From Candidatus Methylomirabilota bacterium (GTDB taxonomy: Bacteria > Methylomirabilota > Methylomirabilia > Rokubacteriales > DASRDR01), in contig DASYQW010000119.1 of the NCBI GenBank assembly GCA_036005065.1, forward strand, positions 1-24,994: a stretch of 24,994 nt of DNA, in the 5' to 3' direction. This document shows, one piece after another, positions 147 to 16,790 of this stretch (position 1 is its first letter; each line of letters begins with the position of its first letter). The position numbers and the translations under genes are program-made. Below the pieces are notes generated by a model. That model made no database searches. It was given only the letters and a program-made list of their open reading frames with translations, and was not told the DNA's origin.

Positions 147-1034
147 CTACGCCCGCAGGACTGCGCTCGCGAGGCGGGCCGCCACCTCCCGGAGCGCCCG
201 GCCCGTCGGACTCTCGCCGTGCTCGAGGACGAACGGCCGGCCCCGGTCCGCCGCCCCGGCCAGTCGAGGATCGAACGGGATCTGGCCGAGGAAGGGAATC
301 CCGCAGTGCAGGGCCAGGCGCTCGCCGCCCGGGCCGTCGAAGAGGGCGCCGAGGCTGCCGCACTGGAGGCAGACGTAGCCGGCCATGTTCTCCACCAGGC
401 CGAGCAGCGGCGTGCCCGCCTCGCGCGCCAGGGCGATCGATCGGCGGACGACCAGGTGGGAGACCTCCGACGGAATGGTGACGACCACGGCGCCCGTGAG
501 GTCGGGCAGCAGGCCGGCCAGCGTCGGCAGCCGGTCGACGCCGGGCGGGAGATCGAGCAGCAGGACGTCCAGGGCGCCCCATGCCGTGTCGGTCAGGAAC
601 TCGCGCAGGGCGTTGGCCTCCATCGTCCCGCGCCAGGTGTGGGCGTCGGTCTGGGTGGGCGCGTTCCACACGACGGGCGTGTCGTCGGACGGGAGCAGGA
701 GGTCCATCGAGAGGACCCGGATCCCCTCGGCGGACCGCGCCGGCTCGACGCCCGCCTCGGTGACCCGGAGCGTCTGACCGCGCACGCCGAGCATCTTGGC
801 GATCGAGGGCCCATTCAGATCCGCGTCCAGCACGCCGACGGCGTACCCCTCGGCGGCCAGCGCCGCCCCGAGGTTCGCGGTCACCGAGCTCTTGCCGACG
901 CCGCCCTTGCCCGAGACGACGGCCACCGTGCGCCGGATGGCCGCCAGCCGGGCGCGGAGCCGGGCGTGTTGCTCGGCGATCTGGCCGACGATGTTCGAGC
1001 CGCCGTCCCCCTGGATGTCCCGATACCGCTTCAC
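147..1034 (-). CDS. apbC: Mrp/ApbC/NBP35-family Fe-S cluster carrier ATPase
   Basis: 295-aa ORF. Deviant Walker A motif VAVVSGKGGVGKSSVTANLGAAL, the ParA/MinD-like Mrp core, and a C-terminal CLQCG CxxC motif for the bridging Fe-S cluster. The start ATG overlaps the upstream stop (ATGA at 1031-1034). Confidence 0.85.
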   Translation of the reverse strand: MKRYRDIQGDGGSNIVGQIAEQHARLRARLAAIRRTVAVVSGKGGVGKSSVTANLGAALAAEGYAVGVLDADLNGPSIAKMLGVRGQTLRVTEAGVEPARSAEGIRVLSMDLLLPSDDTPVVWNAPTQTDAHTWRGTMEANALREFLTDTAWGALDVLLLDLPPGVDRLPTLAGLLPDLTGAVVVTIPSEVSHLVVRRSIALAREAGTPLLGLVENMAGYVCLQCGSLGALFDGPGGERLALHCGIPFLGQIPFDPRLAGAADRGRPFVLEHGESPTGRALREVAARLASAVLRA

Positions 1035-2035
1035 GGCGCCAGGCCCTCGTCGGAGGTGTCGAGCGGCGCCGCCGACGGGTCCTCGAGGTATGTCCGGAAG
1101 CGCTGCATCAGCTCATGGCCGAGGAAGTCGCCGGATCGGCCCGCCCGCTCGGTCTCGAAGTACCGGCGGATCCGGTCCAGCCGCTCCTGCGCCTCGGGGT
1201 TGAGGCTGACGATGCGGAGCCGCTCCTTGGCGGCGTCGAAGGCGTCGAAGGTGAGCTCGGCGAAGCCGAGCTCCCGGATGCGCTTCACGGCCTTCATCAT
1301 CGCCTGGTTACGGAACCGGGTGAGGAGCGGGGAGGTGATCACACGCGCGCCCAGGCGCCGGGCGCGCCGTTCGGCCGCCTTCCGGATGCCCTCGCGCACG
1401 AACTCGGGCGCGGTCTGGAGCCGCTCCCAGGCGTCGGGCGCCCACTCGACCGGCTCTTCCCGGCCGGCAACCCACACCCGCCGGAAGACTTCCGCGGTGA
1501 CGGCCGACTCGCCGCGTCGCCGGGCCTCGGCCTCCACGTCGCGCTTGAAGAGCAGCATGACGAAGTCCGCCATCATCGGCGGCGTCCTGCCGAGCCGTGC
1601 CAGCAGGAGGGTGTCGGCCTCGGGCGTCCACGGCAGGGGCTCGGCCGGCACCTCCGCCTCGGCCAACCCCTCCGCCTCCCGGATGAGTGCGGGGGTGATG
1701 CGGGAGGCGCCTTGCTCGAGGGCGAGCTCCTCGCAGATCCGCCGGGTGATGGGTCGCATGAACTCCGGGATCGAGGCCAGGAGCGCGTCGGCCTCGGACG
1801 TCCACGGCAGGGCGGGCGGGGCGGCCGTCCCGGGGATCGCGTAGCCGCCGGAGGCGGCCAGTCCCATCATCTCCTGCTTGTAGCGCGTCATCAGCTCGGG
1901 CGTGATGACCGGAATCCCCTCGGCGCGGGCACGCCGCTCGGCCAGCCGCCGCACCATGCCGCGCAGGAAGACCGGCGCACGCTGGAGGCGCTCCTCGGCC
2001 TCGGGGGTCCAGCGGACCTCGCCGGGCGGCCTCAC
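1031..2035 (-). CDS. Protein made of 4-5 tandem PCP_red-like repeats (protochlorophyllide reductase BchB C-terminal-like domain, PF08369-like)
   Basis: Taken from the 499-aa ORF 1031..2530. The N-terminal 165 aa of that ORF is a low-complexity Arg/Pro/Gly run overlapping the 2032..2460 gene in another frame. The real start is probably GTG at 2035..2033, overlapping the upstream TGA (GTGA). Repeats found: WTPEAEERLQRAPVFLRGMVRRLAERRARAEGIPVITPELM, LPWTSEADALLASIPEFMRPITRRICEELALEQGASRITPALI, LPWTPEADTLLLARLGRTPPMMADFVMLLFKRDVEAEARRRGESAVTAEV, WAPDAWERLQTAPEFVREGIRKAAERRARRLGARVITSPLL, LNPEAQERLDRIRRYFE. Confidence 0.7.
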   Translation of the reverse strand: MRPPGEVRWTPEAEERLQRAPVFLRGMVRRLAERRARAEGIPVITPELMTRYKQEMMGLAASGGYAIPGTAAPPALPWTSEADALLASIPEFMRPITRRICEELALEQGASRITPALIREAEGLAEAEVPAEPLPWTPEADTLLLARLGRTPPMMADFVMLLFKRDVEAEARRRGESAVTAEVFRRVWVAGREEPVEWAPDAWERLQTAPEFVREGIRKAAERRARRLGARVITSPLLTRFRNQAMMKAVKRIRELGFAELTFDAFDAAKERLRIVSLNPEAQERLDRIRRYFETERAGRSGDFLGHELMQRFRTYLEDPSAAPLDTSDEGLAP

Positions 2036-2460
2036 GGTGGAAGGTTCCAGCCCGCCCGCGCCACCATCACCGCCGTCGCGAGCGCGATCAGGGCGAAGAC
2101 GGTGGCACCGAGGGACATGGACACCTCGCCTCCCCCGGGCAACGGCACCGTCGGCACGCTCGGGGCACGCGCGACCCGCGCCACGCCGACGACCCGGACC
2201 AGGAGAAACACCGCCAGGAGGCGGGTGAACCAGAGGTAGCCCCATCCGTGCGGCCCGCGGGCGATGAGCCAGGGGAAGAGCACCACGAAGAGGAGGCCGA
2301 GCGTGAAGGCGAAGACGAGGAGCCAGCCCGGCCCCGGCCCGGTCGTGCCACGTGCCCCGACGCCGACCAGGACGAGGTACACGGCGCCGACGAGGTAGAT
2401 CACGCCGTAGATCCGGTACGCGAGGGCCGCCTGACGAAACTTCGCCTCGCGCATCGCCAC
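2032..2460 (-). CDS. Small integral membrane protein (about 4 TM helices), function unknown
   Basis: 142-aa ORF in a different frame from the overlapping 499-aa ORF. Contains four long hydrophobic stretches (IYGVIYLVGAVYLVLVGVGA, WLLVFAFTLGLLFVVLFPWLIA, YLWFTRLLAVFLLVRVVGVA, LGATVFALIALATAVMVA). Lies 6 nt after the radical-SAM stop and is coupled to the downstream gene. Confidence 0.6.
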   Translation of the reverse strand: MAMREAKFRQAALAYRIYGVIYLVGAVYLVLVGVGARGTTGPGPGWLLVFAFTLGLLFVVLFPWLIARGPHGWGYLWFTRLLAVFLLVRVVGVARVARAPSVPTVPLPGGGEVSMSLGATVFALIALATAVMVARAGWNLPP

Positions 2461-2466
2461 GCGGCC

Positions 2467-3831
2467 TCAGCCGGCCGGCGGGGCCGGCGCGGGGCGCGGG
2501 GTAAACGATCGGCCCGGGGTGACTCCCCACTGGGCCCGCACCTCGGTCATGAGGGCCGGCGTGACACGCCCCTGCCCCTGGCGCCGGGCGTACGCCTCGA
2601 CTGCCTGGACGACCATGGCCCGGGCGAAGGCGGGGATGGCGTCGAGACGCGCCCGGGCGGCCGGCTCCCAGGCGAGCGTGAACCGCGCCTCGAGGCCGAA
2701 CGTCTGGGCGGCGGGCAGGCGGAGAATCTCACCACCGTGCCGACCCGGCTGGTACGCGCAGGCCGGATCCTCGGCCAGGTAGTCGCCGGATGTCGCGTAG
2801 GCCCGGCACCGGCAGCCGCCGCAGATCACCTGGAACTCGCACGCTCCGCAGCGGCCGCCCAGCCGCGGCTCCCGGAGGTCCTGGAACACCCGGCCCCGCG
2901 CCCACAGCTCGGCGAAGCTCACCTGACGCAGGTTCCCGGCGCTGACGGGCATGTACGGACAGGGCGTGACGTCCCCCTCGGGGGTGATCCGGCAGTAGTA
3001 CTTGCCGGCCGGGCAGGACCCGTGCGCGTAGTTGGCGAGGAGCGGCGAGCGCGGGTCGAGTTCCCAGAGGATGCGGCGGAAGTGCGGGGCGCATTTGGCC
3101 CGGATGAGAAGGTCGCCGGCCCGGCCCGCCGGCACGCTCCACGGATCCTCCGCGCCCTCGACGGGGGAGGGCCGCGGCGTCGGCCCGGCGCCCACCCCCT
3201 GGACGCGCGCCAGGTAGCCGAGGATCGTCTCGTACTGGGCGGCGGTGATGTCGGTCAGCTGCTCGCCCCGACCCGTGCGGACGAGGAAGAAGAAGTTGAG
3301 GACACGCGCCTGAAGTTCCCGGGCCAGGTCGATCATGGCGGGGATCTCGCCCAGGTTCCAGTCGGTCACGCTCATGTGAATCGAGAAGTCGAGCCCCTCG
3401 GCCCGGAGCGCCTGGGTCGCTCGGACGGCGCCCTGCCAGGCGCCGGGCTGGTGCCGGAAGCGATCGTGCCGCGCGGGATCGATCGAGTCGAGGCTGAGCG
3501 ATGCCCCCTGCACCCCGTGCTCGCGGAGGCGCCGCGCCTGCTTCTCGCGCAGGAGCACGCCGTTGGTGCCGAGGACGACCGTGAATCCGTGGTCGCGCCC
3601 CCGGGCGGCGAGCTCGAAGATGTCCGGCCGGAGCAGCGGCTCGCCCCCGGTGAGGATCAGGAACACATCGGGGTTGACGCGGGCGATGTCGGTCATCACC
3701 CGGCGGCACTCCTCGGTCGAGAGCTCGCCGGACGCGCTCGCGCCCGGCGCCGCGCTCATGTAGCAGTGGGCGCAGAAGAGGTTGCAGCGCTGAGTGAGGT
3801 TCCAGGAAACGGCGTATGCCTTGTACGTCAT
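2467..3831 (-). CDS. Radical SAM/SPASM enzyme of the AhbD/NirJ (heme-modifying, PqqE-like) type with a C-terminal PCP_red-like domain fused
   Basis: 454-aa ORF. CxxxCxxC at aa 16-23 (CNLFCAHC). Motifs LSTEE, LILTGGEPLLRPD and VVLGTNG are typical of AhbD/NirJ-type radical SAM enzymes. A Cys-rich SPASM region follows (CPAGKYYC...CPYM...CGACEFQVICGGCRCRAY). The C-terminal ~70 aa, LAWEPAARARLDAIPAFARAMVVQAVEAYARRQGQGRVTPALM, is a PCP_red-type repeat. There is a GGAGG Shine-Dalgarno 5 nt upstream of the ATG. Confidence 0.85.
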   Translation of the reverse strand: MTYKAYAVSWNLTQRCNLFCAHCYMSAAPGASASGELSTEECRRVMTDIARVNPDVFLILTGGEPLLRPDIFELAARGRDHGFTVVLGTNGVLLREKQARRLREHGVQGASLSLDSIDPARHDRFRHQPGAWQGAVRATQALRAEGLDFSIHMSVTDWNLGEIPAMIDLARELQARVLNFFFLVRTGRGEQLTDITAAQYETILGYLARVQGVGAGPTPRPSPVEGAEDPWSVPAGRAGDLLIRAKCAPHFRRILWELDPRSPLLANYAHGSCPAGKYYCRITPEGDVTPCPYMPVSAGNLRQVSFAELWARGRVFQDLREPRLGGRCGACEFQVICGGCRCRAYATSGDYLAEDPACAYQPGRHGGEILRLPAAQTFGLEARFTLAWEPAARARLDAIPAFARAMVVQAVEAYARRQGQGRVTPALMTEVRAQWGVTPGRSFTPRPAPAPPAG

Positions 3832-3840
3832 TCGATCCTC

Positions 3841-3932
3841 CCCTCTCCCCCTGTGGGGGGGAGAGGGTTAGGGTGAGGGGTCCGGCGACGCGGCGAGACC
3901 CTCACCCCACCCTCTCCCTAGGAGGGAGAGGG
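3841..3932 (-). promoter_or_regulatory. Three consecutive GC-rich stem-loops in the 86-nt spacer between the Usp/PCP_red gene and the radical SAM gene; the first stem of the mRNA spans the Usp gene stop codon
   Basis: Plus-strand stem-loops: (1) 3841-3851 ccctctccccc with 3857-3867 gggggagaggg, a perfect 11-bp stem with loop tgtgg. (2) 3871-3882 gggtgaggggtc with 3897-3907 gaccctcaccc, about 11 bp with one bulge. (3) 3910-3919 ccctctccct with 3923-3932 agggagaggg, 9-10 bp; this arm covers the TAG at 3918-3920. All share a CCCTCTCCC/GGGAGAGGG core. There is no U-tract on the minus strand, so this is not a canonical intrinsic terminator. Confidence 0.4.
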
Positions 3933-5834
3933 AGTCTCGGGCTTTTTGTCGCGGATGTAGCCGGCGATGACCTCGTTCATCGTGTTGCGCGCGTGCCCGA
4001 TCCCCTCCTCGCACATCGCGAGATCGACGACCCCCACCTGCTTCGCGCGCGCGACCCGCTCGATCTCCTCTCGGGTCATGTCCCGCATGAACCCGGCCGG
4101 GACGCGGTTGAGGCGGGCCACCGCGTCTTCCGTCCAGGTGAACTCGCCGGACGGCGCCGCCACCTCTCGGAGGCTGGCCGGCTCGAACCGGGTGTTGGCG
4201 ATGAGGGTCTCCCAGCCGGCGCCCAGCTTGTCCCGGCCCACCGTCTCCTCGATCAGGGGGAAGGCCAGCTCCTTGGTGATCACCGGGATCCGGCGCGAGC
4301 GGGCGTACTTCTCGATTCGGGCCTTGGCCCGCCGGCGGAGGTAGGCGTCGGTGACCTCGCGAAGCCCCTCGCGGGCGTCGTTGGCCCACCGGACCGAGAC
4401 GCCGGGCATCACCTCTTCCTCGGCGATGCCGCCCTCGGCGGTGGCGATCGCCTCGACGACCTGCCGGTCGATGAGCGAGAACGCCTCCGGGCCGGCGCCG
4501 CAGACCGGGCACTTCACCACCGGGTTCGGGCCCTTGACCGCGTAACCGCAGATGGAACAGATGGCCGACACCGGCGCCTCCTCGGCCCGTAGCTTGGCGA
4601 CCGCCAGGTCCTCGGCCATGATCTGCATCTTCTCGGCCAGGCGGCTCGGCATGAAGATCGCCATCGCCTCGTCGATGACCTTGGAGGTGATGACCGTATG
4701 CCCCTGCTCGATGGCGTAGCGCAGGAGCGCCGTCCGGGCGACCCCGGCCACCTGGGCCGGGACCCGCTTCATGCGAGCCTCGGCCTCCTCCGTCCAGGAG
4801 ATGATCTCCTCGGCCTTCACGTCGAGCGGCGGGTAGAACCTCCCGCCGGTGAGGAGGACGTTGCAGGGGGCGAGCCGCAGGAGGTTCTCCGTGTTGGAGC
4901 CGAGGTCGGCCTCGTTCTCGTCCGAGTGGACCCCGACCCGCCCCAGGATCAGGAGCCAGGGGTGCTCCTTCCGGCAAAACTGGAGGAGCTTCTCGAAGCA
5001 CTTCCCGTCGAGCAGCGTGATCGCCAGGTCCACCTCCGCGTCCCGGGCCAGCTTCCGCCCGATCTCGAGGTGCGACTGGTAGATCTTGGCCAGCCCGGTG
5101 TCGATGATCTCCTCGTGGAGCTGCTCCTGCTCCTTGAAGCGGAACACCTTCGAGGCTTTCTCGGAAAGGACGCCGACGATGCCGTTGAACATCGCGTAGT
5201 GGAGATAGGGATCGTAGACGGCGACGGCGTGGAGCGCCCGGCCGAGCCTCTTGGCCAGGGCCACGCCGATCTGGAGTCCCCGGAATGACTGGGGACTCCC
5301 GTCGAGTCCGACCACGATGGCGCCCTGCTGGGCTTCCAGGGGATCGGGGTTGCGAACGACGAGCGTGTCGATCGGCACCCGCCGGACGAAGCGCTCCGTC
5401 ACCGAGCCGAGCTGGCTGTCCCTGACGGCGCCCAGCCCCAGCGCGCCGATCACCACCAGATCGTAGTCCCCGGCCCGGACGTCCTCGATGAGGGCCTTGT
5501 AATGCTTGCCGTCCATCATCCGCCGCTCGAACGGGAGCCCGGCCGCCTCCGCCTTCTTGCCTATCACGTCGAGGTACGAGTCGGAGATGAGCTGCAGGCC
5601 CATCGCGATCAGCGAATCGTGGATCTTCCGCTGGCGCTCGAGCTCCGTCTCATCCTTGTACTCGTCCGGCAGCGTGTACTCCATCTGCTTGAACCGGTAG
5701 TCGTGGAGCCGGGCCGCGTAGACGTGGCAGCCGACCAGCTCGGACCCGAACGCCTTCCCGAGCTCGACGGCCAGGTCGATGGCGCGGTTCGAGTAGTCCG
5801 AGTTGTCGACCGGCACGTAGATCTTCCGGAACAT
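3918..5834 (-). CDS. Multidomain protein: tandem universal stress protein (UspA) domains, PCP_red-like repeat, rubredoxin-like zinc ribbon, then two more PCP_red-like repeats
   Basis: 638-aa ORF. The N-terminal ~300 aa carry two Usp-like alpha/beta halves (IYVPVDNSDYSNRAIDLA...VVIGALG; IVVGLDGSPQSFRGLQIGVALA...HPWLLILGRVG). Then ISWTEEAEARMKRVPAQVAGVARTALLRYAIEQGHTVITSKVI, a PCP_red repeat. Then CSICGYAVKGPNPVVKCPVCG, a CxxC...CxxC zinc ribbon. Then VRWANDAREGLREVTDAYLRRRAKARIEKYARSRRIPVITKEL and FTWTEDAVARLNRVPAGFMRDMTREEIERVARAKQVGVVDL. GGAGG Shine-Dalgarno 5 nt upstream. Confidence 0.8.
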   Translation of the reverse strand: MFRKIYVPVDNSDYSNRAIDLAVELGKAFGSELVGCHVYAARLHDYRFKQMEYTLPDEYKDETELERQRKIHDSLIAMGLQLISDSYLDVIGKKAEAAGLPFERRMMDGKHYKALIEDVRAGDYDLVVIGALGLGAVRDSQLGSVTERFVRRVPIDTLVVRNPDPLEAQQGAIVVGLDGSPQSFRGLQIGVALAKRLGRALHAVAVYDPYLHYAMFNGIVGVLSEKASKVFRFKEQEQLHEEIIDTGLAKIYQSHLEIGRKLARDAEVDLAITLLDGKCFEKLLQFCRKEHPWLLILGRVGVHSDENEADLGSNTENLLRLAPCNVLLTGGRFYPPLDVKAEEIISWTEEAEARMKRVPAQVAGVARTALLRYAIEQGHTVITSKVIDEAMAIFMPSRLAEKMQIMAEDLAVAKLRAEEAPVSAICSICGYAVKGPNPVVKCPVCGAGPEAFSLIDRQVVEAIATAEGGIAEEEVMPGVSVRWANDAREGLREVTDAYLRRRAKARIEKYARSRRIPVITKELAFPLIEETVGRDKLGAGWETLIANTRFEPASLREVAAPSGEFTWTEDAVARLNRVPAGFMRDMTREEIERVARAKQVGVVDLAMCEEGIGHARNTMNEVIAGYIRDKKPETPSPS

Positions 5835-5950
5835 GAGCGCCTCCGGTGTCAGGCCGACAACCGTCGCATCCCGGAGCCGCGGTCGTCGGCGTTACGCACG
5901 AAATCGGCCTTCACCCCACCCTCGGCCTACCGGGTCCGCACCGGTGGAGC

Positions 5951-6322
5951 TCAGCATCCGAAGCGGGCGTCGGTCGGGTCGACGAAATTGTCGAGACTCA
6001 GCCAGAGGCTCTTGCTGTACCGGAAAAACCAGAGCGGGAAGAGGACGGCGAACGTGCCCCAGATCGCGAGCTGCTGCCCGACGGTGAGGCCGAGCCAGGC
6101 GCCCAGCCCGAAGTAACCGAGGAGGGCGATCACCACCGTCGCGCCGTAGTTCAGGTAGATGGCCCCCACGAAGTAGCCCGGCTCGCGCTCGAAGACGAGC
6201 CCGCAGCCAGGGCAGCGCGACCGCATGCGAAACCATCCCTCGAACATGCCGCCGGCGCCACAGCGAGGGCACTGCAGACGGAGGCCCCGACCCAGCAGCC
6301 GCCGTGACCGTGCGAGGTCCAT
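5951..6322 (-). CDS. DUF983-family zinc-ribbon membrane protein (commonly encoded next to cytochrome oxidase genes)
   Basis: 123 aa. An N-terminal CPRCG...CPGCG zinc ribbon is followed by two TM helices (YFVGAIYLNYGATVVIALLGYFGLGAWL; LAIWGTFAVLFPLWFF). This is the typical DUF983 layout. Confidence 0.7.
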   Translation of the reverse strand: MDLARSRRLLGRGLRLQCPRCGAGGMFEGWFRMRSRCPGCGLVFEREPGYFVGAIYLNYGATVVIALLGYFGLGAWLGLTVGQQLAIWGTFAVLFPLWFFRYSKSLWLSLDNFVDPTDARFGC

Positions 6323-6347: not shown

Positions 6348-6683
6348 TCAGTGTTTCGCCGGGGCTTCGACCTTCGCCGACTCGGCCGTCTTGTGGTCCA
6401 CGGCGCGACTGTCAGGCATGATGATCAGCACGAGCAGCGTCCCGATGGCGAGCGGGGTCAGAGCGATGTAGGCCAGGGTCCGGGTCTCGAAGCGGAGATG
6501 CATGAAGTACATCGCCACCAGGGCCGCCTTCGAGAGCGCGAGCGCGACCAAGAGCACCCACTTGGTGGGCGGCGGCAGGAAATAGGCGCCGACCTCCAGC
6601 ACCGTCAGTACCGCGAGCCAGTAGAAGACGGCCATGTAGTTCGGGCTCTTGTGGGCGTGTGCCTCAGCCATCGCGTCCCCCAT
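6348..6683 (-). CDS. ctaF: Cytochrome c oxidase subunit IV (prokaryotic COX4_pro/CtaF type)
   Basis: 111 aa. NYMAVFYWLAVLTVLEV...ALSKAALVAMYFMHL matches the bacterial subunit IV consensus (KA.LV..YFMHL). The start is either the first ATG or the ATG 4 codons later (MAEAHAH). Confidence 0.7.
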   Translation of the reverse strand: MGDAMAEAHAHKSPNYMAVFYWLAVLTVLEVGAYFLPPPTKWVLLVALALSKAALVAMYFMHLRFETRTLAYIALTPLAIGTLLVLIIMPDSRAVDHKTAESAKVEAPAKH

Positions 6684-6692: not shown

Positions 6693-7310
6693 TCAGAGCA
6701 GGTAGATGAGCGTGAACACCATGATCCACACGAGGTCCACGAAATGCCAGTAGAGTCCGACGATCTCGGTGATCATGTAGTTGTAGCGCTGGTCCTGGAA
6801 GCGGGAGATCGCCGCCCGGACCACCGCCAGGTAGATCACGCCGCCGGTCACGTGGAGCCCGTGGAAGCCCGTGATGATGTAGAAGCTGGCCCCGAAGAGC
6901 GCGGCTCCCCAGGGATTCCCGAAGACTCGCATCCCCTGTTCGATCAGGTGCGTCCACTCGTACCCCTGCATTCCGAGGAAGAGCAGCCCCCCGCCCATGG
7001 TCCATAGCAGGCGGCTCCGCGCCCGCCGCATGTCCCCGCGCTGGATCCACTCGAGCGCCTTGACCATCGTGACGCTCGAGCAGATCAGGATGAAGGTCAT
7101 GACGGCCGGAATGTTGATCCCGAAGTGGACGGCGGGCGGCGGCCAATCCGCGCTGGAAGCCCGGACCGCCCCGTAGGAGGCCAGCAGCACGCCGAACCCC
7201 ACGGCGTCTCCCGCCAGGAAGATCCACATTCCGAGCTTCCCCCAGCTCTCGGGGGTGAGCGGCGACTCGGCCGGCTCGACGGCCGGGTGAGGCAGCGCGG
7301 CTTCAGTCAC
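6693..7310 (-). CDS. ctaE: Cytochrome c oxidase subunit III (5-TM short form)
   Basis: 205 aa. Carries WGKLGMWIFLAGDAVGFG, FYIITGFHGLHVTGGVIYL and LYWHFVDLVWIMVF, the hallmarks of heme-copper oxidase subunit III. GTG start at 7310 with an AAGGAGA Shine-Dalgarno 7 nt upstream. Confidence 0.85.
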   Translation of the reverse strand: MTEAALPHPAVEPAESPLTPESWGKLGMWIFLAGDAVGFGVLLASYGAVRASSADWPPPAVHFGINIPAVMTFILICSSVTMVKALEWIQRGDMRRARSRLLWTMGGGLLFLGMQGYEWTHLIEQGMRVFGNPWGAALFGASFYIITGFHGLHVTGGVIYLAVVRAAISRFQDQRYNYMITEIVGLYWHFVDLVWIMVFTLIYLL

Positions 7311-7345: not shown

Positions 7346-8032
7346 TCACACGAGATAGACGAGGATGTAGAGAATCGGCCACAGAGCCACCACGAAGTGC
7401 CAGTACATCGCGCAGGTCGCCAGGCTCACGTACTCCCGTGGCGTGTAGCGGCCGCGCGCCGCCCACGCCAGGACGATCAGGAGCCAGGTCAGGGCCCCCA
7501 GGACGTGCGCGCCGTGGGTTCCGATCAGCGTGTAGAACGTGCCGCCGTAGATTCCCGAAGACGCGGTCAGGCCGAACCCGACCAGGCGGATCCACTCGGC
7601 GCCCTGCACCGCCAGGAACAGCGCGCCGAGGCCGGCGGTTCGGGCGAGGCCGCGGACCAGGCCGCGCTGGTCGCCCTGGCGGACGGCGCGGAGCGCGCGA
7701 GCCAGCGTATAGCTCGAGCCGATCAGGACCAGCGTGTTGACGGCCGTGACCCCCACCGGAAGTCGCGGCTGACCGGGAGGCGGCCACACGCTGGCGCCGA
7801 GGCGCAGGACCAGGAAAGCGGCCACCAGCCCGCCGAACAGGACCGTCTCTCCCGTGAGCAGCATCAGCATCCCGAGGCGGGCGTTCGAGTACGGGGGATA
7901 CGCCTCCGGCCCGGATCCGCCGTCGTCCCCGTTCCCGCGGGGCGGCGGGACCGGCGGCTGCCAGTCGCGGCCCAGCTCGCGGCTCGGGGGCCCGCCGACA
8001 CGCCGCTGGAGGTCGGGCTCGATGATCGGCAT
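7346..8032 (-). CDS. Second cytochrome c oxidase subunit III-family protein (paralog with a Pro/Gly-rich N-terminal extension)
   Basis: 228 aa. Carries GMLMLLTGETVLFGGLVAAF, FYTLIGTHGAHVLGALTWL and AMYWHFVVALWPILYILVYL, the same family signature as ctaE but divergent. The N-terminal ~50 aa are a proline-rich low-complexity run. Confidence 0.75.
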   Translation of the reverse strand: MPIIEPDLQRRVGGPPSRELGRDWQPPVPPPRGNGDDGGSGPEAYPPYSNARLGMLMLLTGETVLFGGLVAAFLVLRLGASVWPPPGQPRLPVGVTAVNTLVLIGSSYTLARALRAVRQGDQRGLVRGLARTAGLGALFLAVQGAEWIRLVGFGLTASSGIYGGTFYTLIGTHGAHVLGALTWLLIVLAWAARGRYTPREYVSLATCAMYWHFVVALWPILYILVYLV

Positions 8033-8213: not shown

Positions 8214-8376
8214 GCGACGGGGATCGGCACGGCCCTGAACTCACGGCCGGGCCGAGACCCGAGCAGCCCTAGGACGCAGGCCGGAGCCGGCCCGAGGCGT
8301 ATGCCGCATACGTTGAGGGCTGGCGACGGCCGAGGACGACGGGCTGCGACGGGTATCGGCACGGCCGTCAGCTCAC
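8214..8376. repeat. 31-nt imperfect direct repeat (27/31 identical) flanking a 132-nt spacer that contains a small palindrome; the second copy overlaps the ctaB stop codon
   Basis: 8214-8244 gcgacggggatcggcacggccctgaactcac versus 8346-8376 gcgacgggtatcggcacggccgtcagctcac. A palindrome, cgtatg-ccg-catacg, lies at 8298-8312. The repeat also shows in the spurious ORF translations as a repeated AVPIPVAA / RRATGIGTA. Confidence 0.6.
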
Positions 8377-9282
8377 CTTGTCGAGCGCCATCAGCACCAG
8401 CAGTATCGGCAAATACAGCACGGAGGCCAGGAGCAGCCGCCGGGCCGCCGGCGGCGAGGGCGCGACCGCCTGCGCCATGCCACAGGCCAGGAAGAGCCCT
8501 CCCAGGGTCAGAGCGCCGAAGAAGTACACCGCGCCCGCGAGCCCGATCAGCGTCGGCAGGAGCCCCACCGCGAGGAGGGCGAGACACCCCGCCACGATCT
8601 GGCGCTCGGTGCTCGCGCCGTCGGGGTCGACGACGGGCAGGACGCGGATGCCGGCCCGCGCGTAGTCCTCACGGTAGAGCCGGGCGATGGCCAGCGTGTG
8701 CGGGAGCTGCCACAGGAACAGGATCGCGAACAGCACCGCCGCGCCCGGCCCCAGGTCGCCGCGCGCCGCCACCCAGCCCGTCACGGGGGGCAGGGCGCCC
8801 GGGACAGCGCCGATCACCATGCACAGCGGCGTGACGCGCTTGAGCGGCGTGTAGGCGAAGAGGTAGAGGCCCACCGTCGCTACCGTCACCAGGACGCTGG
8901 CAGGCCCGACAGTCAGGGCAAGGTAGGCGAGTCCCGCCGCCGTCGTCAGCGTCCCGAAGACGAGCGCCTCCCCCGGCTGCAGGCGACCGTCGGGCAGGGG
9001 TCGGCCACGCGTGCGCTGCATCCGCGAATCGACGTCCCGCTCGAGGAACTGATTGAGCGCCAGCGTGCCGGCCGCCGCCAGTGCGGTCCCGAGCAGCGTG
9101 TGGGCGAGGCGGACGTAGTCCTGGCCGCCGACCGAGCCCAGGTAATAGCCGACGAACGTCGTCACCAGGACCATGAGGACGACCCGGGGCTTCGTCAACG
9201 TCACGAAGTCGGCGAGTCGCCGGCGGGCGCCGGCGAGAGCCACGGCCGGCGCCCCCGGCAGCGTCCCCGTCCGCGAGATCAT
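8368..9282 (-). CDS. ctaB: Protoheme IX farnesyltransferase (heme O synthase)
   Basis: Taken from the 451-aa ORF 8368..9723. The first ~147 aa of that ORF are Arg/Gly/Ala low-complexity and overlap ctaA in another frame. The real start is ATG 9282..9280 (MISRTG...), overlapping the ctaA TGA (ATGA). UbiA-family motifs are present: LTKPRVV, NQFLERDVDSRMQRTRGRPLP, YTPLKRVTPL. Confidence 0.85.
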   Translation of the reverse strand: MISRTGTLPGAPAVALAGARRRLADFVTLTKPRVVLMVLVTTFVGYYLGSVGGQDYVRLAHTLLGTALAAAGTLALNQFLERDVDSRMQRTRGRPLPDGRLQPGEALVFGTLTTAAGLAYLALTVGPASVLVTVATVGLYLFAYTPLKRVTPLCMVIGAVPGALPPVTGWVAARGDLGPGAAVLFAILFLWQLPHTLAIARLYREDYARAGIRVLPVVDPDGASTERQIVAGCLALLAVGLLPTLIGLAGAVYFFGALTLGGLFLACGMAQAVAPSPPAARRLLLASVLYLPILLVLMALDKVS

Positions 9283-10223
9283 GCCGCCACCCCCTGCGCG
9301 CCCGGCCCCGCCGGCAGCTGCGCCCGGGCCTCGGCCGCTTCGGCCCCGCCGAGCCGCCCGAGCGTGAGCACGAGCATGACCGCCCCGCCGAGGAGCAGAG
9401 CGGCGGTGGCCCGGTGGGCGACCGGCAGCACCAGGCCGCCGAGGACACCGCCGGGCACGGCGAACCCCGTGAAGCGCGCGACGTAGGCGCCGAGCCCGAG
9501 CCCGAGCTGAAGCGCGAGGAGGCTCAGCAGGGTCCCGGCCGGCCAGGCGAGCGCCGCCCGCGCCCGGTGCCGAGCGAGCACGCGTAGCGCGAGGAGCGCC
9601 ACGGCGAGCGTCGCCACGACGGCGCCGCCCAGGTGCCAGTCGATCCGGCCGGCGTGCGTCGTCAGGGCACCCAGCACGATCTGGAGATAGAGCGCGGCGG
9701 TCGCCGCCACCGCGAGCCCCCACAAGCGGCGGGCCTCGGCCGCCGGGAGGGGCGCCACCGGCGCTCGCCAGGCCGGGGCGGTGAAGACGGCGAGCGCCAC
9801 CGTCAGGGCGAAGAAGGCCTGAGCCAGGCAGCCGTGGACGATCGCCAGCGTATCCCGCAGGAGGAGCACCCGCAGCCCGCCGAGCAGCCCCTGCCCGCCC
9901 ACCAGGACGACGGCCGCCAGCCCGAGCAGCCGGAGCCGGCCCTGCCGGTCGCCGAACCAGAGCACGGTCGCCAGGCCGAGCGTCAGGAACCCGACCAGTG
10001 CCCCCAGGAGACGATGACTGTGCTCGTAGAGGACGCCCCCGACCATCTGCGACCAGGGATAGAGAAACATGTTGTGGCCGAACGTGGTCGGCCAGTCGGG
10101 AACCGCCAGCGCGGCCCCGGTGTTCGTCACGAGCCCGCCGGCCACGATCAGCACGAGCGTCGCGCCGACGGTGACGAGCGCCAGGCGGTGCGCCCAGCGC
10201 ATGGGCGCCGACGCCGTCGTCAC
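9279..10223 (-). CDS. ctaA: Heme A synthase (CtaA/COX15 family)
   Basis: 314 aa, about 8 TM helices. Conserved His residues sit in the TM helices (YEHSHRLLG, IVHGCLAQAFF, TTHAG). GAAGGA Shine-Dalgarno upstream. Its position between ctaD and ctaB supports the call. Confidence 0.8.
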   Translation of the reverse strand: MTTASAPMRWAHRLALVTVGATLVLIVAGGLVTNTGAALAVPDWPTTFGHNMFLYPWSQMVGGVLYEHSHRLLGALVGFLTLGLATVLWFGDRQGRLRLLGLAAVVLVGGQGLLGGLRVLLLRDTLAIVHGCLAQAFFALTVALAVFTAPAWRAPVAPLPAAEARRLWGLAVAATAALYLQIVLGALTTHAGRIDWHLGGAVVATLAVALLALRVLARHRARAALAWPAGTLLSLLALQLGLGLGAYVARFTGFAVPGGVLGGLVLPVAHRATAALLLGGAVMLVLTLGRLGGAEAAEARAQLPAGPGAQGVAA

Positions 10224-10244: not shown

Positions 10245-12002
10245 TCAGTGCGCGCGCGAGGACGCGCCCGCTGTGGTGAGCCGTCGCGTCTGGGGCAGGT
10301 AGTCCTCGGGTACCTCCGGCGAGCTGTACTCGTAGGGCCCGCGGTAGACGACGGGCAGGGCAGCGCCCCAGTTCCCGTGGGGTGGAGGCGACGGCGCCGT
10401 CCACTCCAGCGTGTTGGCGCTCCAGGGATTCAGGGGCGCCTTCGGCCCTTTGAAGAGGCTCCAGAGGAAATTGATCACGAACGGGATCTGGCCCAGGCCG
10501 AGCAGGAAGGCGCTGACGCTGATGAAGATGTTCCAGGGCTCGGTCCACGTCAGGAACTCGTACTGCATCGGGTTGTAGATCCGGCGCATCATGCCGCCCA
10601 CCCCGAGGATGTGCATCGGGAAGAAGACGAAGTTGAAGAACACGAACGTCGGCCAGAAATGGAGCTTCCCGAGCGTGTCGTTCATCATCCGGCCGAACAT
10701 CTTCGGGAACCAGTAGTAGATGCCGGCGAACGCCCCGAAGATGGAGCCGCCGAAGACCACGTAGTGGATGTGGGCCACGATGAAGTAGGTGTCCTGGATG
10801 AAGATGTCCACCGGCGTGGAGGCCATGAAGATCCCGCTGAGCCCCCCGATCACGAACATCGACACGAAGGCCAGCCCGTTCAGCATGGGAACGGTGAACC
10901 GGATGTTCCCGCCCCACAGGGTCCCCAGCCAGTTGAACGTCTTGATGGCCGAGGGGACGGCGATGACCATCGTCGTGATCATGAAGGAGGTCCCGAGGGC
11001 CGGGTTCATGCCGCTCACGAACATGTGGTGGCCGTACACGACCCAGGAGAGGAAGGCGATGCCGATGATGGAGAAGGCCATCGCGCGGTAGCCGAAGATC
11101 GGCTTCCGGGCGAAGACCGAGAGCACGTCGGAGGCGATCCCCATCGCCGGCAGGATCAGGATGTAGACCTCCGGATGACCGAAGAACCAGAAGAGATGCT
11201 GCCAGAGCAGGGGCTCCCCGCCCCCGGCGGGATTGAACCAGTTGGTTCCGAAGACGCGGTCGAAGAGCAGCATGGCGACAGCCGACGTCAGGACCGGGAG
11301 GGCGAGCAGGAGGAGGATGGCCGTGATGAACATCGCCCAGATGACCAGCGGCATCCGGAACATCGTCATGCCGGGCGCGCGCATGTTCACGATCGTCGTG
11401 ATGTAGTTGATGGAGCCCATCATGGAGGAGACGCCGAGGACGAACAGGCTGATGCACCAGAGGTTCTGGCCCCAGTTGACGCCGGAGTACTGGGGGATGG
11501 CCGAGAGCGGGGCGTACGAGGTCCACCCGGCGGCGGCGTGCCCGCCCTCCACGAAGAAGCCGGCCAGCATCAGGAGCCCGGCCAGGGCCCCCGCCCAGAA
11601 GGAGAGCATGTTCAGCCGGGGGAACGCCATGTCCCGCGCCCCGACCATCAGGGGGATCAGGAAGTTCCCGAACGCCCCCGCCAGGATCGGCATGATCACG
11701 AAGAAGATCATGATGGTGGCGTGCATCGTGAACATCATGTTGTAGACGGCGGGCGAGATGACCCCCTCGCTGTCGGGCCAGATGAGCCGCCCGACCAGGG
11801 GCACCGGGGTCTCCGGCCACGCCAGCTGCCACCGGAGGAAGAGCGCCAGCAGGCCGCCGATGACCATCATGAAGAGGCCCAGGAAGAGGAACTGGCGGGC
11901 GATCATCTTGTGGTCGGTCGAGAAGATGTAGGTCCGCACGAAGCCCAGCTCGTGGGCATGCACGTCGTGCGCGCTGGCCGTCGCGGCTGCTGGATGCGCC
12001 AT
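10245..12002 (-). CDS. ctaD: Cytochrome c oxidase (aa3-type heme-copper oxidase) subunit I
   Basis: 585 aa. Carries WFFGHPEVYILILP, GMDVDTRAYF-like regions, HHMF and YVVAHFHYV-type motifs (IVAHIHYVVFGGSIFG). The subunit I signature is unmistakable. Confidence 0.95.
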   Translation of the reverse strand: MAHPAAATASAHDVHAHELGFVRTYIFSTDHKMIARQFLFLGLFMMVIGGLLALFLRWQLAWPETPVPLVGRLIWPDSEGVISPAVYNMMFTMHATIMIFFVIMPILAGAFGNFLIPLMVGARDMAFPRLNMLSFWAGALAGLLMLAGFFVEGGHAAAGWTSYAPLSAIPQYSGVNWGQNLWCISLFVLGVSSMMGSINYITTIVNMRAPGMTMFRMPLVIWAMFITAILLLLALPVLTSAVAMLLFDRVFGTNWFNPAGGGEPLLWQHLFWFFGHPEVYILILPAMGIASDVLSVFARKPIFGYRAMAFSIIGIAFLSWVVYGHHMFVSGMNPALGTSFMITTMVIAVPSAIKTFNWLGTLWGGNIRFTVPMLNGLAFVSMFVIGGLSGIFMASTPVDIFIQDTYFIVAHIHYVVFGGSIFGAFAGIYYWFPKMFGRMMNDTLGKLHFWPTFVFFNFVFFPMHILGVGGMMRRIYNPMQYEFLTWTEPWNIFISVSAFLLGLGQIPFVINFLWSLFKGPKAPLNPWSANTLEWTAPSPPPHGNWGAALPVVYRGPYEYSSPEVPEDYLPQTRRLTTAGASSRAH

Positions 12003-12082: not shown

Positions 12083-12739
12083 CTAGGAGGGCCACTTCTC
12101 CTTGAGCCACTGCTGGTACTCTTCCGCGGTGTGGACGAACAGGAAGCCCTTCATCCCCGAGTGCCCGAACCCGCAGAGCTCGGCACACGGGATCTCGTAT
12201 TTGCCGGGCTTCGTCACCTCGACCCACTGGTGGATCACGCGGCCCGGCACGGCGTCCTGCTTGAACCGGGCCTGGGGGATGAACACGCTGTGGATCACGT
12301 CCCGCGAGGTCAGGTGCAGGATGACCGGCTTGCCGACCGGGACGTGGACCTCGTTATCGAAGGTCTGGTCGTCCTCGGTCTCGAACTTCCCGTCGGGCCC
12401 CGGGTAGGTCACCTCCCAGTTGAACTGCTTGGCCGTGATCCGGATGTGGATGTCGGACTCGGGAAGCCGGCTCTTGATCCGGGTCCAGCCGGGAACCGAG
12501 AGGAAGGTGAGGATCACCAGGATGAGCGCGGGGACGATCGTCCAGACGATCTCGAGGGTGGCGTTCCCGTGGGTGTAGGTCGCCCGCCGTCCCTCCCGGT
12601 GGCGGTAGGCCACCAGGAAGATGATCATGGCGCCCGCCACCAGGATGAACGTCACGCCGGTGATGTAGTAGATGAGGTAGAAGAGCCAGTCGATTTCGGC
12701 TCCATAGGTGGAGATGTTCTCCGGCAGCCACCTCATCAT
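12083..12739 (-). CDS. ctaC: Cytochrome c oxidase subunit II (CuA centre, no fused cytochrome c domain)
   Basis: 218 aa. Two N-terminal TM helices, then a cupredoxin fold with HSVFIPQ...CAELCGFGHSGM, which gives the CuA ligands H, C, C, H, M. The protein ends right after the CuA domain, so this is aa3-type rather than caa3-type. Confidence 0.9.
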   Translation of the reverse strand: MMRWLPENISTYGAEIDWLFYLIYYITGVTFILVAGAMIIFLVAYRHREGRRATYTHGNATLEIVWTIVPALILVILTFLSVPGWTRIKSRLPESDIHIRITAKQFNWEVTYPGPDGKFETEDDQTFDNEVHVPVGKPVILHLTSRDVIHSVFIPQARFKQDAVPGRVIHQWVEVTKPGKYEIPCAELCGFGHSGMKGFLFVHTAEEYQQWLKEKWPS

Positions 12740-12824: not shown

Positions 12825-12852
12825 ATTATCGTCGGGGGCCGCACGGTGTCAA
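12825..12852 (-). promoter_or_regulatory. Candidate sigma70-type internal promoter for ctaC-ctaD..., TTGACA-16 nt-GATAAT on the minus strand
   Basis: Minus strand: TTGACA at 12852..12847, a 16-nt spacer, then GATAAT at 12830..12825. The predicted start site near 12818 would leave a ~79-nt leader before the ctaC ATG at 12739. This is one of very few AT-rich hexamer pairs in the window. Confidence 0.4.
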
Positions 12853-13662: not shown

Positions 13663-15918
13663 CTACGCCTCGCGGCCACGCCGGCGCCCGGCCCACCGCA
13701 CGAGTCCGAGCTCGGCCGCGACGGTGACCAGGGCCGCGATGGGCGGGATCACGAACTGCCGCTTGGACGGCGGTGCCTCTAACCGCACATAGTACCACGA
13801 GGAAACCGCGGCCTTCGCCCCCTCGTCTCCCTCGGAGCCATCCCAGACCCAGAACGCGATGGGAAAGAAGTCGTGCGCGGGAAAGATGAAATCGGCCTTG
13901 TCGGGCGTCTCCCGGGGCCGGCGGATGACGACCCGGTACTGCCCGGCGTCGTAGACCGCCTGCCCCCTGGCCTGGATCGACTCCCCGTTCTGCGGCGAGA
14001 TCTTCCCGGCCCCGACCGCGGTGGCCTCGCCGACCCCGGTCCCCGCTTGCCAGGTCAGGAGGTAGACCGAGTTGTTGCTGTCCCCCATGAGGAAGTACGG
14101 GCGCTCGCCCGAGTCGCCGCCCCCGGTCGGGAACTGGAGCGCGACCATGTCCGGCTTCGGGGCCCCCTTCTTGGGGTCGGAGTCGGTGGGGTCGTCCCAG
14201 GTCAGGTGAAAGGCGATCTCGCGTGCCGTGTAGACCGCGCGGACCGTGATCATGTCCACCGTCGGGTTGAAGTTCCGCGGGTCGACGATCACCTGGCCGA
14301 CCATCGGGAAGTTCGTCCCCGGCATCTTCCGCCAGAACTCCGCGTTGGGGTCCGAGGGCACCTCCCCGCTCGCCGCGCGGATCTGGAGGAAGCTGGCCCA
14401 GTTGGGTCGCTCCTCCCCGAGGGAGCGGACATAGTTGGCGAGGTGCCAGACGTCTTCGGGCTTCTCGACCGAATCGGCGAACGTCGGCATCGGGGTGCCC
14501 ATCAGCCCTGTCGAGAGTCGCGTCGCCACGTCCTTCCGCCCGGGCCCGCCGCGGAAGGTCCAGGGCTTGTGCAGGTTCGCCGGGCGGACGGGGGTCCCCC
14601 AGTCGTCCTTCAGGTCGGACCCGGGCGCCGGATCGCCCCGGCCCGCCGGGCCGTGGCACTTGTTGCACTCGATCGCCTCGAACATCTCCTTGCCGCGCTT
14701 GATCGACGCCTCCGAGGAGGACACCTCGCCCGGGAGCTTGGCGAGCTCCGGCTTGGCGCCCTTGAACCCCTCGGCGAACGTCTTGACGTAGGCGACCAGG
14801 GCCCAGCGGTCCTTCTCGGGCAGGACCTTCCAGGCCGGCATCGATGTGCCGGGCATCCCGCCGGTGATCACCTGGAAAAGGTCCTGATCGGTCGGGAGCT
14901 GACCGGATGGCGTGCTCCGGATCTTGAACTTGCCCGCGGTGAAGTCGCGCGGCTTGGGGAGCAGGCGCTCGGCCGCCGGCCCGTCCCCCTTGCCGGACGC
15001 TCCGTGACAGAGCGCGCACTTGGCCTCGTAGAGCGGCTTGCCACGGCCGGGGTCCCCGGCCTGCGCGCCGGCGTCTGAGGGTTGGAGGGCGGCCACACCC
15101 CGCGAGACGAGCGATGCCAGCCGGTCCCACCGGGGAATCCCCGGCCGCGCGGCGCCCTCGCGGGCCAGCATGACGCGCGGCGGGTAGCCCGTCGTCTCGT
15201 AGAGGTAGTAGATCACCTGCCAGATCTGCTCCTCGGTGAGCTTGTCCTCCCAGGCGGGCATCGCCGAGTTCCACGGCGTCGATTCTCTGGGCAGGCCGGG
15301 GCCGCCCTTGGCGATCCGCCAGAAGAGGAAGCCCTCGGAGAGCTGGGCGATCGTCCCGGGGTCGGTGAAGTCCGCCGGTTGCGGGTTGAAGCCGTGGGCG
15401 AAGTGCCCCTTTCCGTCCAGGTTGTCGCCGTGGCAGTAGACGCAGTTCTGGATGTAGACGGCGCCGCCGGCGGCCAGGTGCGCGTCGCGGCTGGCCGCGT
15501 TCTGCCCGATGGCCTTGCGGACCGGCGTCTGGGGATCCTGGAGATCGATGTTCTTGCCCCGGAACGCGATGGTGGCCGGGGGCGCCGGGTGAATCGCGCG
15601 GAGCTCGACGGGCGCCTCGGCCTTGGCGGCGGCCTGGGAGTAGGCGTAGTAGCCCGCGAGCAGAGGGAACAGCACCCCCAGCGCCAGCCGCACCGGACGC
15701 CGGCGGGGCTCGCTCAGCGTCGTCCACATCGGTCCCAGGAACCCCCGCCAGGACGCGGAATCCGAGGACACGTAGACCAGCACGGCCAGGAGCGTGATGG
15801 CCATGTAGAGCGAGAGGAGGCTGAACGGCATCGGCGGCTGGATGCCGTACCGGAAGACGAGGAACGCGACGACGAGGACGAGGACCGCCTGGAGGAACTT
15901 GCCCCGGGGCTGGGCCAT
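13663..15918 (-). CDS. Membrane-anchored triheme c-type cytochrome with a C-terminal EB_dh/DOMON-like heme-binding domain
   Basis: 751 aa. Three N-terminal TM helices. Three CxxCH motifs (CVYCH, CALCH, CNKCH), each in a class-I cytochrome c-like module. The C-terminal ~200 aa (TVRAVYTAREIAFHLTWDD...FPIAFWVWDGSEGD...) resemble the ethylbenzene-dehydrogenase gamma-like heme b domain. A final TM helix follows. Confidence 0.8.
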   Translation of the reverse strand: MAQPRGKFLQAVLVLVVAFLVFRYGIQPPMPFSLLSLYMAITLLAVLVYVSSDSASWRGFLGPMWTTLSEPRRRPVRLALGVLFPLLAGYYAYSQAAAKAEAPVELRAIHPAPPATIAFRGKNIDLQDPQTPVRKAIGQNAASRDAHLAAGGAVYIQNCVYCHGDNLDGKGHFAHGFNPQPADFTDPGTIAQLSEGFLFWRIAKGGPGLPRESTPWNSAMPAWEDKLTEEQIWQVIYYLYETTGYPPRVMLAREGAARPGIPRWDRLASLVSRGVAALQPSDAGAQAGDPGRGKPLYEAKCALCHGASGKGDGPAAERLLPKPRDFTAGKFKIRSTPSGQLPTDQDLFQVITGGMPGTSMPAWKVLPEKDRWALVAYVKTFAEGFKGAKPELAKLPGEVSSSEASIKRGKEMFEAIECNKCHGPAGRGDPAPGSDLKDDWGTPVRPANLHKPWTFRGGPGRKDVATRLSTGLMGTPMPTFADSVEKPEDVWHLANYVRSLGEERPNWASFLQIRAASGEVPSDPNAEFWRKMPGTNFPMVGQVIVDPRNFNPTVDMITVRAVYTAREIAFHLTWDDPTDSDPKKGAPKPDMVALQFPTGGGDSGERPYFLMGDSNNSVYLLTWQAGTGVGEATAVGAGKISPQNGESIQARGQAVYDAGQYRVVIRRPRETPDKADFIFPAHDFFPIAFWVWDGSEGDEGAKAAVSSWYYVRLEAPPSKRQFVIPPIAALVTVAAELGLVRWAGRRRGREA

Positions 15919-15926
15919 GACGCGAC

Positions 15927-16787: not shown

Positions 16788-16790
16788 GGC

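Follow-up and report, generated by a model that had tools for sequence, protein, structure and literature searches.

The stretch of DNA analysed here (24,994 nucleotides (nt), positions 1 to 24,994 of contig DASYQW010000119.1, assembly GCA_036005065.1 of a Candidatus Methylomirabilota bacterium; referred to as the window) raises the question of what a radical SAM/SPASM enzyme with a C-terminal PCP_red domain does beside the genes of a terminal oxidase. The gene in question (2467..3831, minus strand) starts with an ATG codon preceded by a GGAGG ribosome-binding site and encodes a protein of 454 amino acids (aa), classified from its open reading frame (ORF), Pfam and NCBIfam matches, and an AlphaFold2 model as a candidate AhbD-like haem synthase. 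The window has a G+C content of ~70%, and its closest relatives are metagenome-assembled genomes (MAGs) of Candidatus Rokubacteria/Methylomirabilota, with protein identities of up to 87%. A first-pass annotation had described the enzyme as AhbD/NirJ-like with an unusual PCP_red fusion, removed from its usual siroheme-to-haem surroundings and therefore possibly acting in another way on another tetrapyrrole. The analysis presented here leads to a different answer: with a probability put slightly above even, the enzyme is an oxygen-independent coproheme decarboxylase that would provide haem b for haem o/a synthesis and for the oxidases.

Three domains were detected above their Pfam cut-offs, Radical_SAM (PF04055, residues 11-170, 88.5 bits vs 29.5), SPASM (PF13186, residues 273-331, 39.6 bits vs 21.5), and PCP_red (PF08369, residues 388-432, 44.2 bits vs 32.5), and no methyltransferase or cobalamin domain was found by Pfam. 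Together with the first of these matches, the CX3CX2C cluster motif CNLFCAHC (C16, C20, C23; 3763..3786, minus strand), invariant in both alignments of relatives, makes the protein a member of the radical SAM superfamily. Since this motif begins at residue 16, there is no N-terminal peptide-recognition domain. The further blocks ELSTEE (36-41), GGEPLLRPD (62-70), and LGTNG (87-91) are present as well; they had been considered diagnostic of AhbC, AhbD, and NirJ, a view that is not upheld, because GGEP and TNG align in PqqE and BlsE too and are general radical SAM features. It is the scores of profile hidden Markov models (HMMs), not these blocks, on which the assignment of the core is based. 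NirJ2 (304.7 bits) and AhbD (299.6 bits) are the best NCBIfam models, followed by TIGR04053 (253.5 bits), NirJ (199.6 bits), and AhbC (174.5 bits), whereas the maturase models reach 148.4 bits at most (mycofactocin 148.4, PqqE 124.4, sactipeptide/subtilosin <=100). No HemN/HemW-type model is among the 25 NCBIfam matches listed of 74. By these sequence profiles, the core is a member of the AhbD/NirJ2 haem-modifying group and not of the peptide maturases, and the earlier placement in an AhbD/NirJ-type group is borne out. The AhbD-like label itself is not new: some orthologues are already automatically annotated as 'AdoMet-dependent heme synthase', a label of the Joint Genome Institute (JGI), and the names of cluster members are either this one or 'radical SAM protein', none with a curated AhbD label.

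The cluster ligands of AhbD are retained completely. For the enzymes of Methanosarcina barkeri and sulfate reducers, a full SPASM motif of AhbD, CX20-33CX17CX36-37CX2CX5CX2CX17-35C, was published, whose eight cysteines ligate two auxiliary [4Fe-4S] clusters (PMC10452713). The enzyme of the window shows this full eight-cysteine region (2758..3093, minus strand) with the spacing C247-x25-C273-x17-C291-x36-C328-x2-C331-x5-C337-x2-C340-x17-C358, which, along with the PF13186 match, places it in the SPASM subfamily. Seven cysteines had been counted in this region at first reading; the C-terminal half contains ten conserved ones, of which eight fit the AhbD motif and two, C280 and C342, are extra. 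The eight SPASM and the three radical SAM cysteines are invariant across an alignment of 62 relatives, comprising proteins fused to PCP_red and canonical ones. The same conserved residue is found at 57 positions in the fused clade and in canonical AhbD/NirJ2-like sequences, many of these positions being polar (among them H22, R68, D115, H122, D123, R126, N159, R188, R253, R320, and R343), and no position is fixed to differing residues between the two groups at the 80% level. Between the radical SAM core and SPASM lies a variable Gly/Ala/Pro-rich insert of ~30 residues (approximately residues 212-240; 3112..3198, minus strand), recognised by gap-rich alignment columns, a predicted local distance difference test (pLDDT) score of 53-79, and the division of the AhbD/NirJ2 HMM matches into two stretches. 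The AlphaFold2 model of the whole enzyme, calculated from close orthologues plus distant fused and canonical relatives, has a mean pLDDT of 90.5 and a predicted template modelling (pTM) score of 0.87; with close orthologues alone in the alignment (37 sequences, >=70% identity), the model was poor (pLDDT 57). We know of no solved AhbD structure.

Judged by homology and by the predicted fold, the tail is a genuine folded PCP_red domain (residues 388-432; 2536..2670, minus strand). Three helices are predicted (390-397, 401-417, 425-435; pLDDT 83-97), the linker after the last SPASM cysteine is also modelled confidently, and low confidence is limited to the last ~17 residues; the extension is thus neither disordered nor non-homologous to PCP_red. 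Among orthologues, W388, A392, R395, L396, P400, F402, A403, R404, M406, V407, E412, and A415 are invariant. The tail finds a match in 2L09, a stand-alone PCP_red protein of solved structure, and the repeats of a neighbouring gene match residues 471-518 of BchB and the solved protein 2KRU, so that membership in PCP_red is backed by homology to the BchB C-terminus in addition to the Pfam score. As had been noticed, both flanking genes carry such repeats, four copies downstream and three upstream. None of the PCP_red copies in the window contains a conserved His or Cys able to ligate a metal or haem iron, and no function of the domain was found documented in the literature searched. A 'BchB C-terminal helix', which may or may not be part of the PCP_red segment, is said to cover the protochlorophyllide cavity (PMC4071322).

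The epithet 'unusual' does not suit the fusion. With each GTDB species represented by one genome, a pattern scan returned at least 567 encoded relatives; the best 80 of them are 62-85% identical, with matches extending over the tail, and come from Methylomirabilota (Rokubacteria, Methylomirabilia), Tectomicrobia/Entotheonella, Nitrospirota, and a small number of otherwise labelled bins. When 1.84 billion cluster representatives were searched exhaustively with HMMER, 1,020 proteins were found at E <=1e-30, and one to four PCP_red copies follow SPASM in 41 of the best 150 of these (50%-identity clusters). In a neighbour-joining tree of 100 full-length cores (database representatives, no support values), all fused proteins fall in one clade, which also contains two sequences with no detected PCP_red. 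Named members of the distant fused clusters derive from MAGs labelled Planctomycetota, Nitrospinota, and Nitrosomonadales. As far as sequences tell, the fusion is one conserved clade and not a one-off. Neither this monophyletic PCP_red-tailed clade nor its partner module or the embedding in cox-ctaAB operons of Methylomirabilota and relatives was found described in the literature searched, which also contained nothing relevant on radical SAM genes in cta operons or on haem synthesis in Rokubacteria. The PCP_red copy number is higher in some other loci (fetched loci are numbered with the prefix L), where enzymes with three copies are encoded (L085, 10001-11842, 613 aa; L086, 5751-7841, 696 aa).

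The genomic surroundings connect the enzyme to haem. On the minus strand, the gene order is cox2-cox1-ctaA-ctaB-cox3-cox3-cox4-DUF983-Usp/PCP_red-radical SAM-membrane protein-PCP_red x4-Mrp. Pfam matches identify COX2 (12083-12739), COX1 (10245-12002), ctaA for haem a synthase (COX15-CtaA, 9279-10223), and ctaB for haem o synthase (UbiA family, listed ORF 8368-9723); Pfam and synteny identify COX3 (7346-8032), its second tandem paralogue (6693-7310), and COX4 (6348-6683). CtaB uses haem b as its substrate and supplies its product to CtaA. The absence of ahbA, ahbB, ahbC, and nir genes from the window is confirmed and extends to the annotated fetched loci. However, the description of the enzyme as being out of haem context is contradicted by the genes immediately upstream on the same strand, which are ctaA, ctaB, and a complete operon for an aa3-type oxidase. 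AhbD without AhbA/B/C is known from organisms using the coproporphyrin pathway, where it presumably serves as the anaerobic replacement of ChdC (PMC13564367, PMC10114771). Because such stand-alone AhbD proteins are documented, the different reaction that had been deduced from the missing ahbA/B/C genes does not follow (PMC13564367).

Four partner genes complete the module, all on the minus strand. Directly upstream, a 638-aa protein combines two Usp domains, one PCP_red copy, a rubredoxin-like domain, and two further PCP_red copies (3918..5834; Pfam, 83.9 bits for the three PCP_red copies). Downstream follow a 142-aa hydrophobic, predicted membrane protein recognised by its conserved synteny (2032..2460), for which Pfam gives no family at cut-off, a 334-aa protein of four PCP_red stretches (1031..2035; PF08369, 142.8 bits), which starts with GTG at 2035 within a GTGA overlap, and a 295-aa P-loop Fe-S cluster carrier ATPase of the Mrp/ApbC/NUBPL type (147..1034; PF10609, 255.4 bits), whose scores for MrpORP (254.9 bits) and ApbC (184.5 bits) are each below the equivalog cut-off. 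The three junctions from the radical SAM gene to Mrp consist of a 6-nt gap and two GTGA overlaps.

This neighbourhood is conserved in relatives, for which loci reaching 10 kb were fetched. Most Methylomirabilota loci keep the co-directional order from cox and ctaA-ctaB to Mrp. The most conserved partner is the Usp-PCP_red gene, present within 5 kb upstream in 48 of the 58 loci with enough flank and adjoining the enzyme also in the distant members L085-L089. Mrp lies downstream in 47/64 loci, the small membrane protein in 43/64 (~1.3 kb from the enzyme start), and ctaB within 10 kb upstream in 31 of 43 loci with enough flank; the PCP_red x4 protein, found in 15/82 loci, is an optional member. 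At 40-50% identity the module is kept in MAGs labelled Nitrospinota and Nitrosomonadales and in other metagenome contigs, and in distant members it adjoins DUF420, CopD, cox, or bd-like oxidase genes. For instance, a contig with a near-identical copy of a protein labelled Nitrospinota at NCBI has the order cyt c - DUF420 - Mrp - PCP_red protein - Usp/PCP_red - enzyme (with three PCP_red copies), and another lineage combines a divergent cox operon, the enzyme, Usp/PCP_red, Mrp, a PCP_red protein, CopD, and a bd-like oxidase. In Nitrospirota loci, a CopD/UPF0093-like membrane protein follows the enzyme and a DUF420 protein is nearby; the translationally coupled pair of PCP_red x4 and Mrp genes is retained there even apart from the enzyme. 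Entotheonella-type loci do not have most of the partners; behind the enzyme gene of L001, a small protein that matches PCP_red weakly is encoded. Neighbour clustering gave no hem genes in Entotheonella-type and Nitrospirota loci.

A direct connection to haem synthesis is seen in two members, in which a HemY-family oxidase gene comes right after that of the enzyme (L086, 7845-9284; L087, 11308-12711), separated by a 3-nt gap in one and overlapping by 4 nt in the other. Both score far above the TIGR00562 cut-off (246 and 231 bits vs 97.85). Enzymes of the HemY type act on copro- or protoporphyrinogen. Behind the HemY-family gene of L086, a DAHP synthase and a Peripla_BP_2 periplasmic binding protein (iron/haem/B12 type) are encoded.

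If the chemistry follows that described for AhbD (PMC10452713, PMC10114771), the CX3CX2C-bound [4Fe-4S] cluster would cleave S-adenosylmethionine reductively, and the resulting 5'-deoxyadenosyl radical would take hydrogen from the propionates of rings A and B of coproheme. CO2 would then be lost, and the surplus electron would exit via a pair of auxiliary [4Fe-4S] clusters, termed AuxI and AuxII. The gene has the orientation of ctaB, ctaA, and the aa3-type oxidase genes and is probably transcribed together with them, so that haem b would be made where haem o/a synthesis and oxidase assembly consume it. Possible roles can also be proposed for the partners. The Usp-PCP_red-rubredoxin protein could be a nucleotide-sensing redox partner, with its rubredoxin-like Fe(Cys)4 site as a plausible electron partner. 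Loading or repair of the enzyme's three Fe-S clusters may be the task of the Mrp-type ATPase; such a dedicated carrier would suit a presumed aerobe whose enzyme has three clusters sensitive to O2. As for the small membrane protein, it may serve as an anchor of the complex and tether it near CtaB and CtaA. PCP_red itself could either take part in handing over the tetrapyrrole between proteins, comparable to the NifX domain fused to NifB, or serve in docking, be it of the three PCP_red-bearing proteins to each other or of the P-loop ATPase, comparable to BchB with BchL.

Several observations weigh against a coproheme decarboxylase. The equivalog cut-offs of the AhbD (TIGR04545) and NirJ2 (TIGR04055) models, 500 bits each, are missed by both scores (299.6 and 304.7 bits), in part because the ~30-residue insert splits the match. 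When eight canonical-length representatives were scanned, only P0180 passed the NirJ2 cut-off (533 bits) and none of the eight passed that of AhbD; P0180 falls in a different clade from the fused proteins, and in the same tree the fused clade as a whole stands apart from the AhbD-like and NirJ2 groups of canonical length. The fused proteins also have their own residue preferences (N11 vs E, Y24 vs R, R281 vs F, and P292 vs G in the canonical ones). The hosts (Rokubacteria, Nitrospirota, Entotheonella) are mostly aerobes or microaerophiles, for which the choice of an O2-labile enzyme with three clusters, expressed together with an aa3 oxidase, would not be expected. HemY adjacency is limited to two loci of one sub-clade. 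Finally, the tight link is to oxidase biogenesis and not to general haem synthesis genes, which would fit an oxidase-specific role as well.

That role is the strongest of the alternatives, although we regard it as rather unlikely. According to it, the enzyme would not make bulk haem b but would carry out a new radical reaction on haem b, o, or a, or deliver haem in a HemW-like manner, with the PCP_red proteins as haem carriers. In its favour are the consistent association with oxidase biogenesis genes and the separation of the clade, with its residue preferences, from canonical AhbD and NirJ2-like proteins: the strict operon partners in Methylomirabilota are cox, ctaA, and ctaB instead of hem genes, and in other phyla the module stands beside DUF420, CopD-like, and bd-like oxidase genes. 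The scores under the equivalog cut-offs agree with it, and HemW sets a precedent for a radical SAM-type haem chaperone (PMC10114771). HemW belongs, however, to the unrelated HemN-like family, which is not represented among the NCBIfam matches listed. Every AhbD cluster ligand and the 57 core positions are shared with canonical relatives, the HemY-family gene in two members points to haem synthesis proper, and with both ctaA and ctaB in the window haem o/a synthesis lacks none of its known steps. A broader and equally tentative proposal sees PCP_red as an unrecognised haem-handling or docking domain and the module as a membrane-associated haem synthase complex that, in phyla of aerobic chemolithotrophs, would pass coproheme/haem b directly to the synthases of haem o/a and to terminal oxidases or, more radically, the enzyme as one performing an oxygen-independent, oxidase-specific haem modification.

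Less probable still, and in our view doubtful, is the reading of the first-pass annotation, i.e. a different decarboxylation, a methylation, or a cross-link on another tetrapyrrole held by PCP_red and unrelated to normal haem b synthesis. In other contexts, PCP_red is known as the C-terminal domain of BchB, a subunit of a tetrapyrrole reductase, and both the missing ahbA/B/C and nir genes and the sub-threshold equivalog scores are compatible with such a reaction. The missing ahbA/B/C genes are nevertheless normal for AhbD of coproporphyrin-pathway organisms (PMC13564367), and the genomic context is the route that leads from haem b via haem o to haem a, with HemY in addition. The enzyme has neither a methyltransferase nor a cobalamin domain, its PCP_red copies offer no conserved metal-ligating His or Cys, and binding of tetrapyrroles by PCP_red is undocumented in the literature searched.

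Very improbable, in turn, is a peptide-modifying SPASM maturase, either for ribosomally synthesised and post-translationally modified peptides (RiPPs) or for protein cross-linking, acting e.g. on a small peptide or an oxidase subunit: the SPASM domain is typical of peptide maturases and the fold neighbours among solved structures are mostly peptide/protein maturases (PqqE, SkfB, SuiB, anSME; PqqE is also the nearest solved protein by sequence), but SuiB is likewise the first structural hit of a published AhbD model (PMC10452713), so that fold likeness does not discriminate, the maturase HMMs score half as high as AhbD/NirJ2 or less, an N-terminal recognition domain is lacking, and 4-nt overlaps, short gaps, and an 86-nt upstream gap filled by a hairpin leave no room for a conserved precursor gene. 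Membership among the RiPP maturases (PqqE, MftC, AlbA, SuiB-like) was thus rejected, with models at <=148.4 bits, no recognition domain, and no space for a precursor ORF; the clustering with maturases next to a precursor gene that would have spoken against a haem enzyme does not occur.

To our knowledge, characterisation of the oxygen-independent coproheme decarboxylase step is limited to archaea and sulfate reducers, and in Gram-positives the step is no more than presumed. If the enzyme is a coproheme decarboxylase, this step would be extended to phyla that are widespread in soil and water and mostly uncultured (Rokubacteria/Methylomirabilota, Nitrospirota, Tectomicrobia) and would be placed physically beside the genes of haem a synthesis and the terminal oxidase. 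As PCP_red is common to three proteins of one module around a tetrapyrrole enzyme, the hand-over and docking hypotheses become testable. Since the public labels are mostly 'radical SAM protein', the result would improve annotation in hundreds of genomes.

The remaining features of the operon concern its expression and gene boundaries. A hairpin followed by GGAGG occupies the whole 86-nt gap from the Usp-PCP_red stop to the radical SAM start (3832..3917, minus strand; 24-bp stem, -54.2 kcal/mol, z -2.8), and it may be a repetitive extragenic palindromic (REP)-like element or an intercistronic element of stability or attenuation. Its arm GAGGGTGGGGTGAGGG recurs with one mismatch in the gap between DUF983 and Usp (5908-5923, minus strand). 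The hairpin is absent from L083, where the called Usp gene overlaps the radical SAM start by 4 nt (10004 vs 10001). Upstream of cox2, a sigma-70-like promoter match (TTGACA-16-GATAAT, 11/12; 12825..12852, minus strand) is the sole one on the minus strand down to 147, on consensus evidence only; a consensus scan found no convincing terminator between it and the module genes, and Rfam no RNA element in the window. The listed ctaB ORF (451 aa) includes ~150 surplus N-terminal residues overlapping the ctaA ORF; because the UbiA domain begins at residue 185, the true start is probably near 9280, at the end of ctaA. A longer ORF (1031-2530, 499 aa) overlaps the radical SAM gene and merges the genes of the 142-aa membrane protein and the PCP_red x4 protein, which lie in different frames; its G+C-rich N-terminal part is spurious.

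Some neighbouring genes vary between loci. A small DUF983 membrane/zinc-ribbon protein is encoded between cox4 and the Usp gene (5951..6322, minus strand; PF06170, 39.5 bits) and is syntenic in 37/82 loci. In L002 and L083, a DUF420 gene and a CarboxypepD_reg-like gene take the position after cox4. The Nitrospirota Usp protein of L059 (2600-5218, an ORF of 872 aa) has, as read by eye, extra PCP_red-like repeats and CxxC zinc-ribbon-like motifs. In some relatives, a CDF-family cation-efflux gene is inserted between the small membrane protein and Mrp (L083, 11728-12462; L084, 2974-3708), which suggests a link to the handling of metals, possibly iron. Upstream of the cox operon, the region 13663-18731 (minus strand) contains genes for a 646-aa protein resembling cytochrome bd subunit I, for a dihaem cytochrome c, and for a protein that combines three cyt c domains with a haem b-binding EB_dh domain; this bd-like/cyt c cluster accompanies the radical SAM module in L002, L025, L037, L087, and L088.

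Among known systems, one parallel is that of NifB and NifX, where a C-terminal domain on NifB traffics the product cofactor (PMC13474568). The likeness is one of architecture only, a radical SAM enzyme carrying a small C-terminal domain that recurs stand-alone or in multiple copies in the same cluster; there is no sequence relationship, and a carrier role of PCP_red would be an analogy. HemW is comparable as a protein of radical SAM fold tied to the delivery of haem to respiratory complexes (PMC10114771), but it is of the HemN-like family and has no SPASM domain. The C-terminal domain of BchB/ChlB and the ~60-residue proteins 2KRU and 2L09, solved by nuclear magnetic resonance (NMR), are homologous to the tail and the neighbouring repeats, whereas PCP_red occurs here on a radical SAM enzyme, a Usp-rubredoxin protein, and a repeat protein in genomes of non-phototrophs. 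With the NirJ2-type or stand-alone AhbD of the coproporphyrin pathway, the enzyme shares the top-scoring model, the occurrence apart from the other siroheme-route genes, and, in two fused members, the adjacency to HemY; it differs in scoring below the cut-off, in a clade apart from P0180, and in its hosts, which are Methylomirabilota, Nitrospirota, etc. instead of Gram-positives. Compared with AhbD itself (TIGR04545; Methanosarcina barkeri, Desulfovibrio vulgaris), it has the ~30-residue insert before SPASM, the PCP_red tail, and the extra cysteines C280 and C342, scores 299.6 vs 500 bits, and is encoded in a cox-ctaAB operon of presumed aerobes with no ahbA/B/C nearby. What both have in common is the CX3CX2C core, the eight-cysteine SPASM spacing that predicts two auxiliary [4Fe-4S] clusters, the lack of a peptide-recognition domain, and a profile that is among the two best NCBIfam models for the enzyme of the window.

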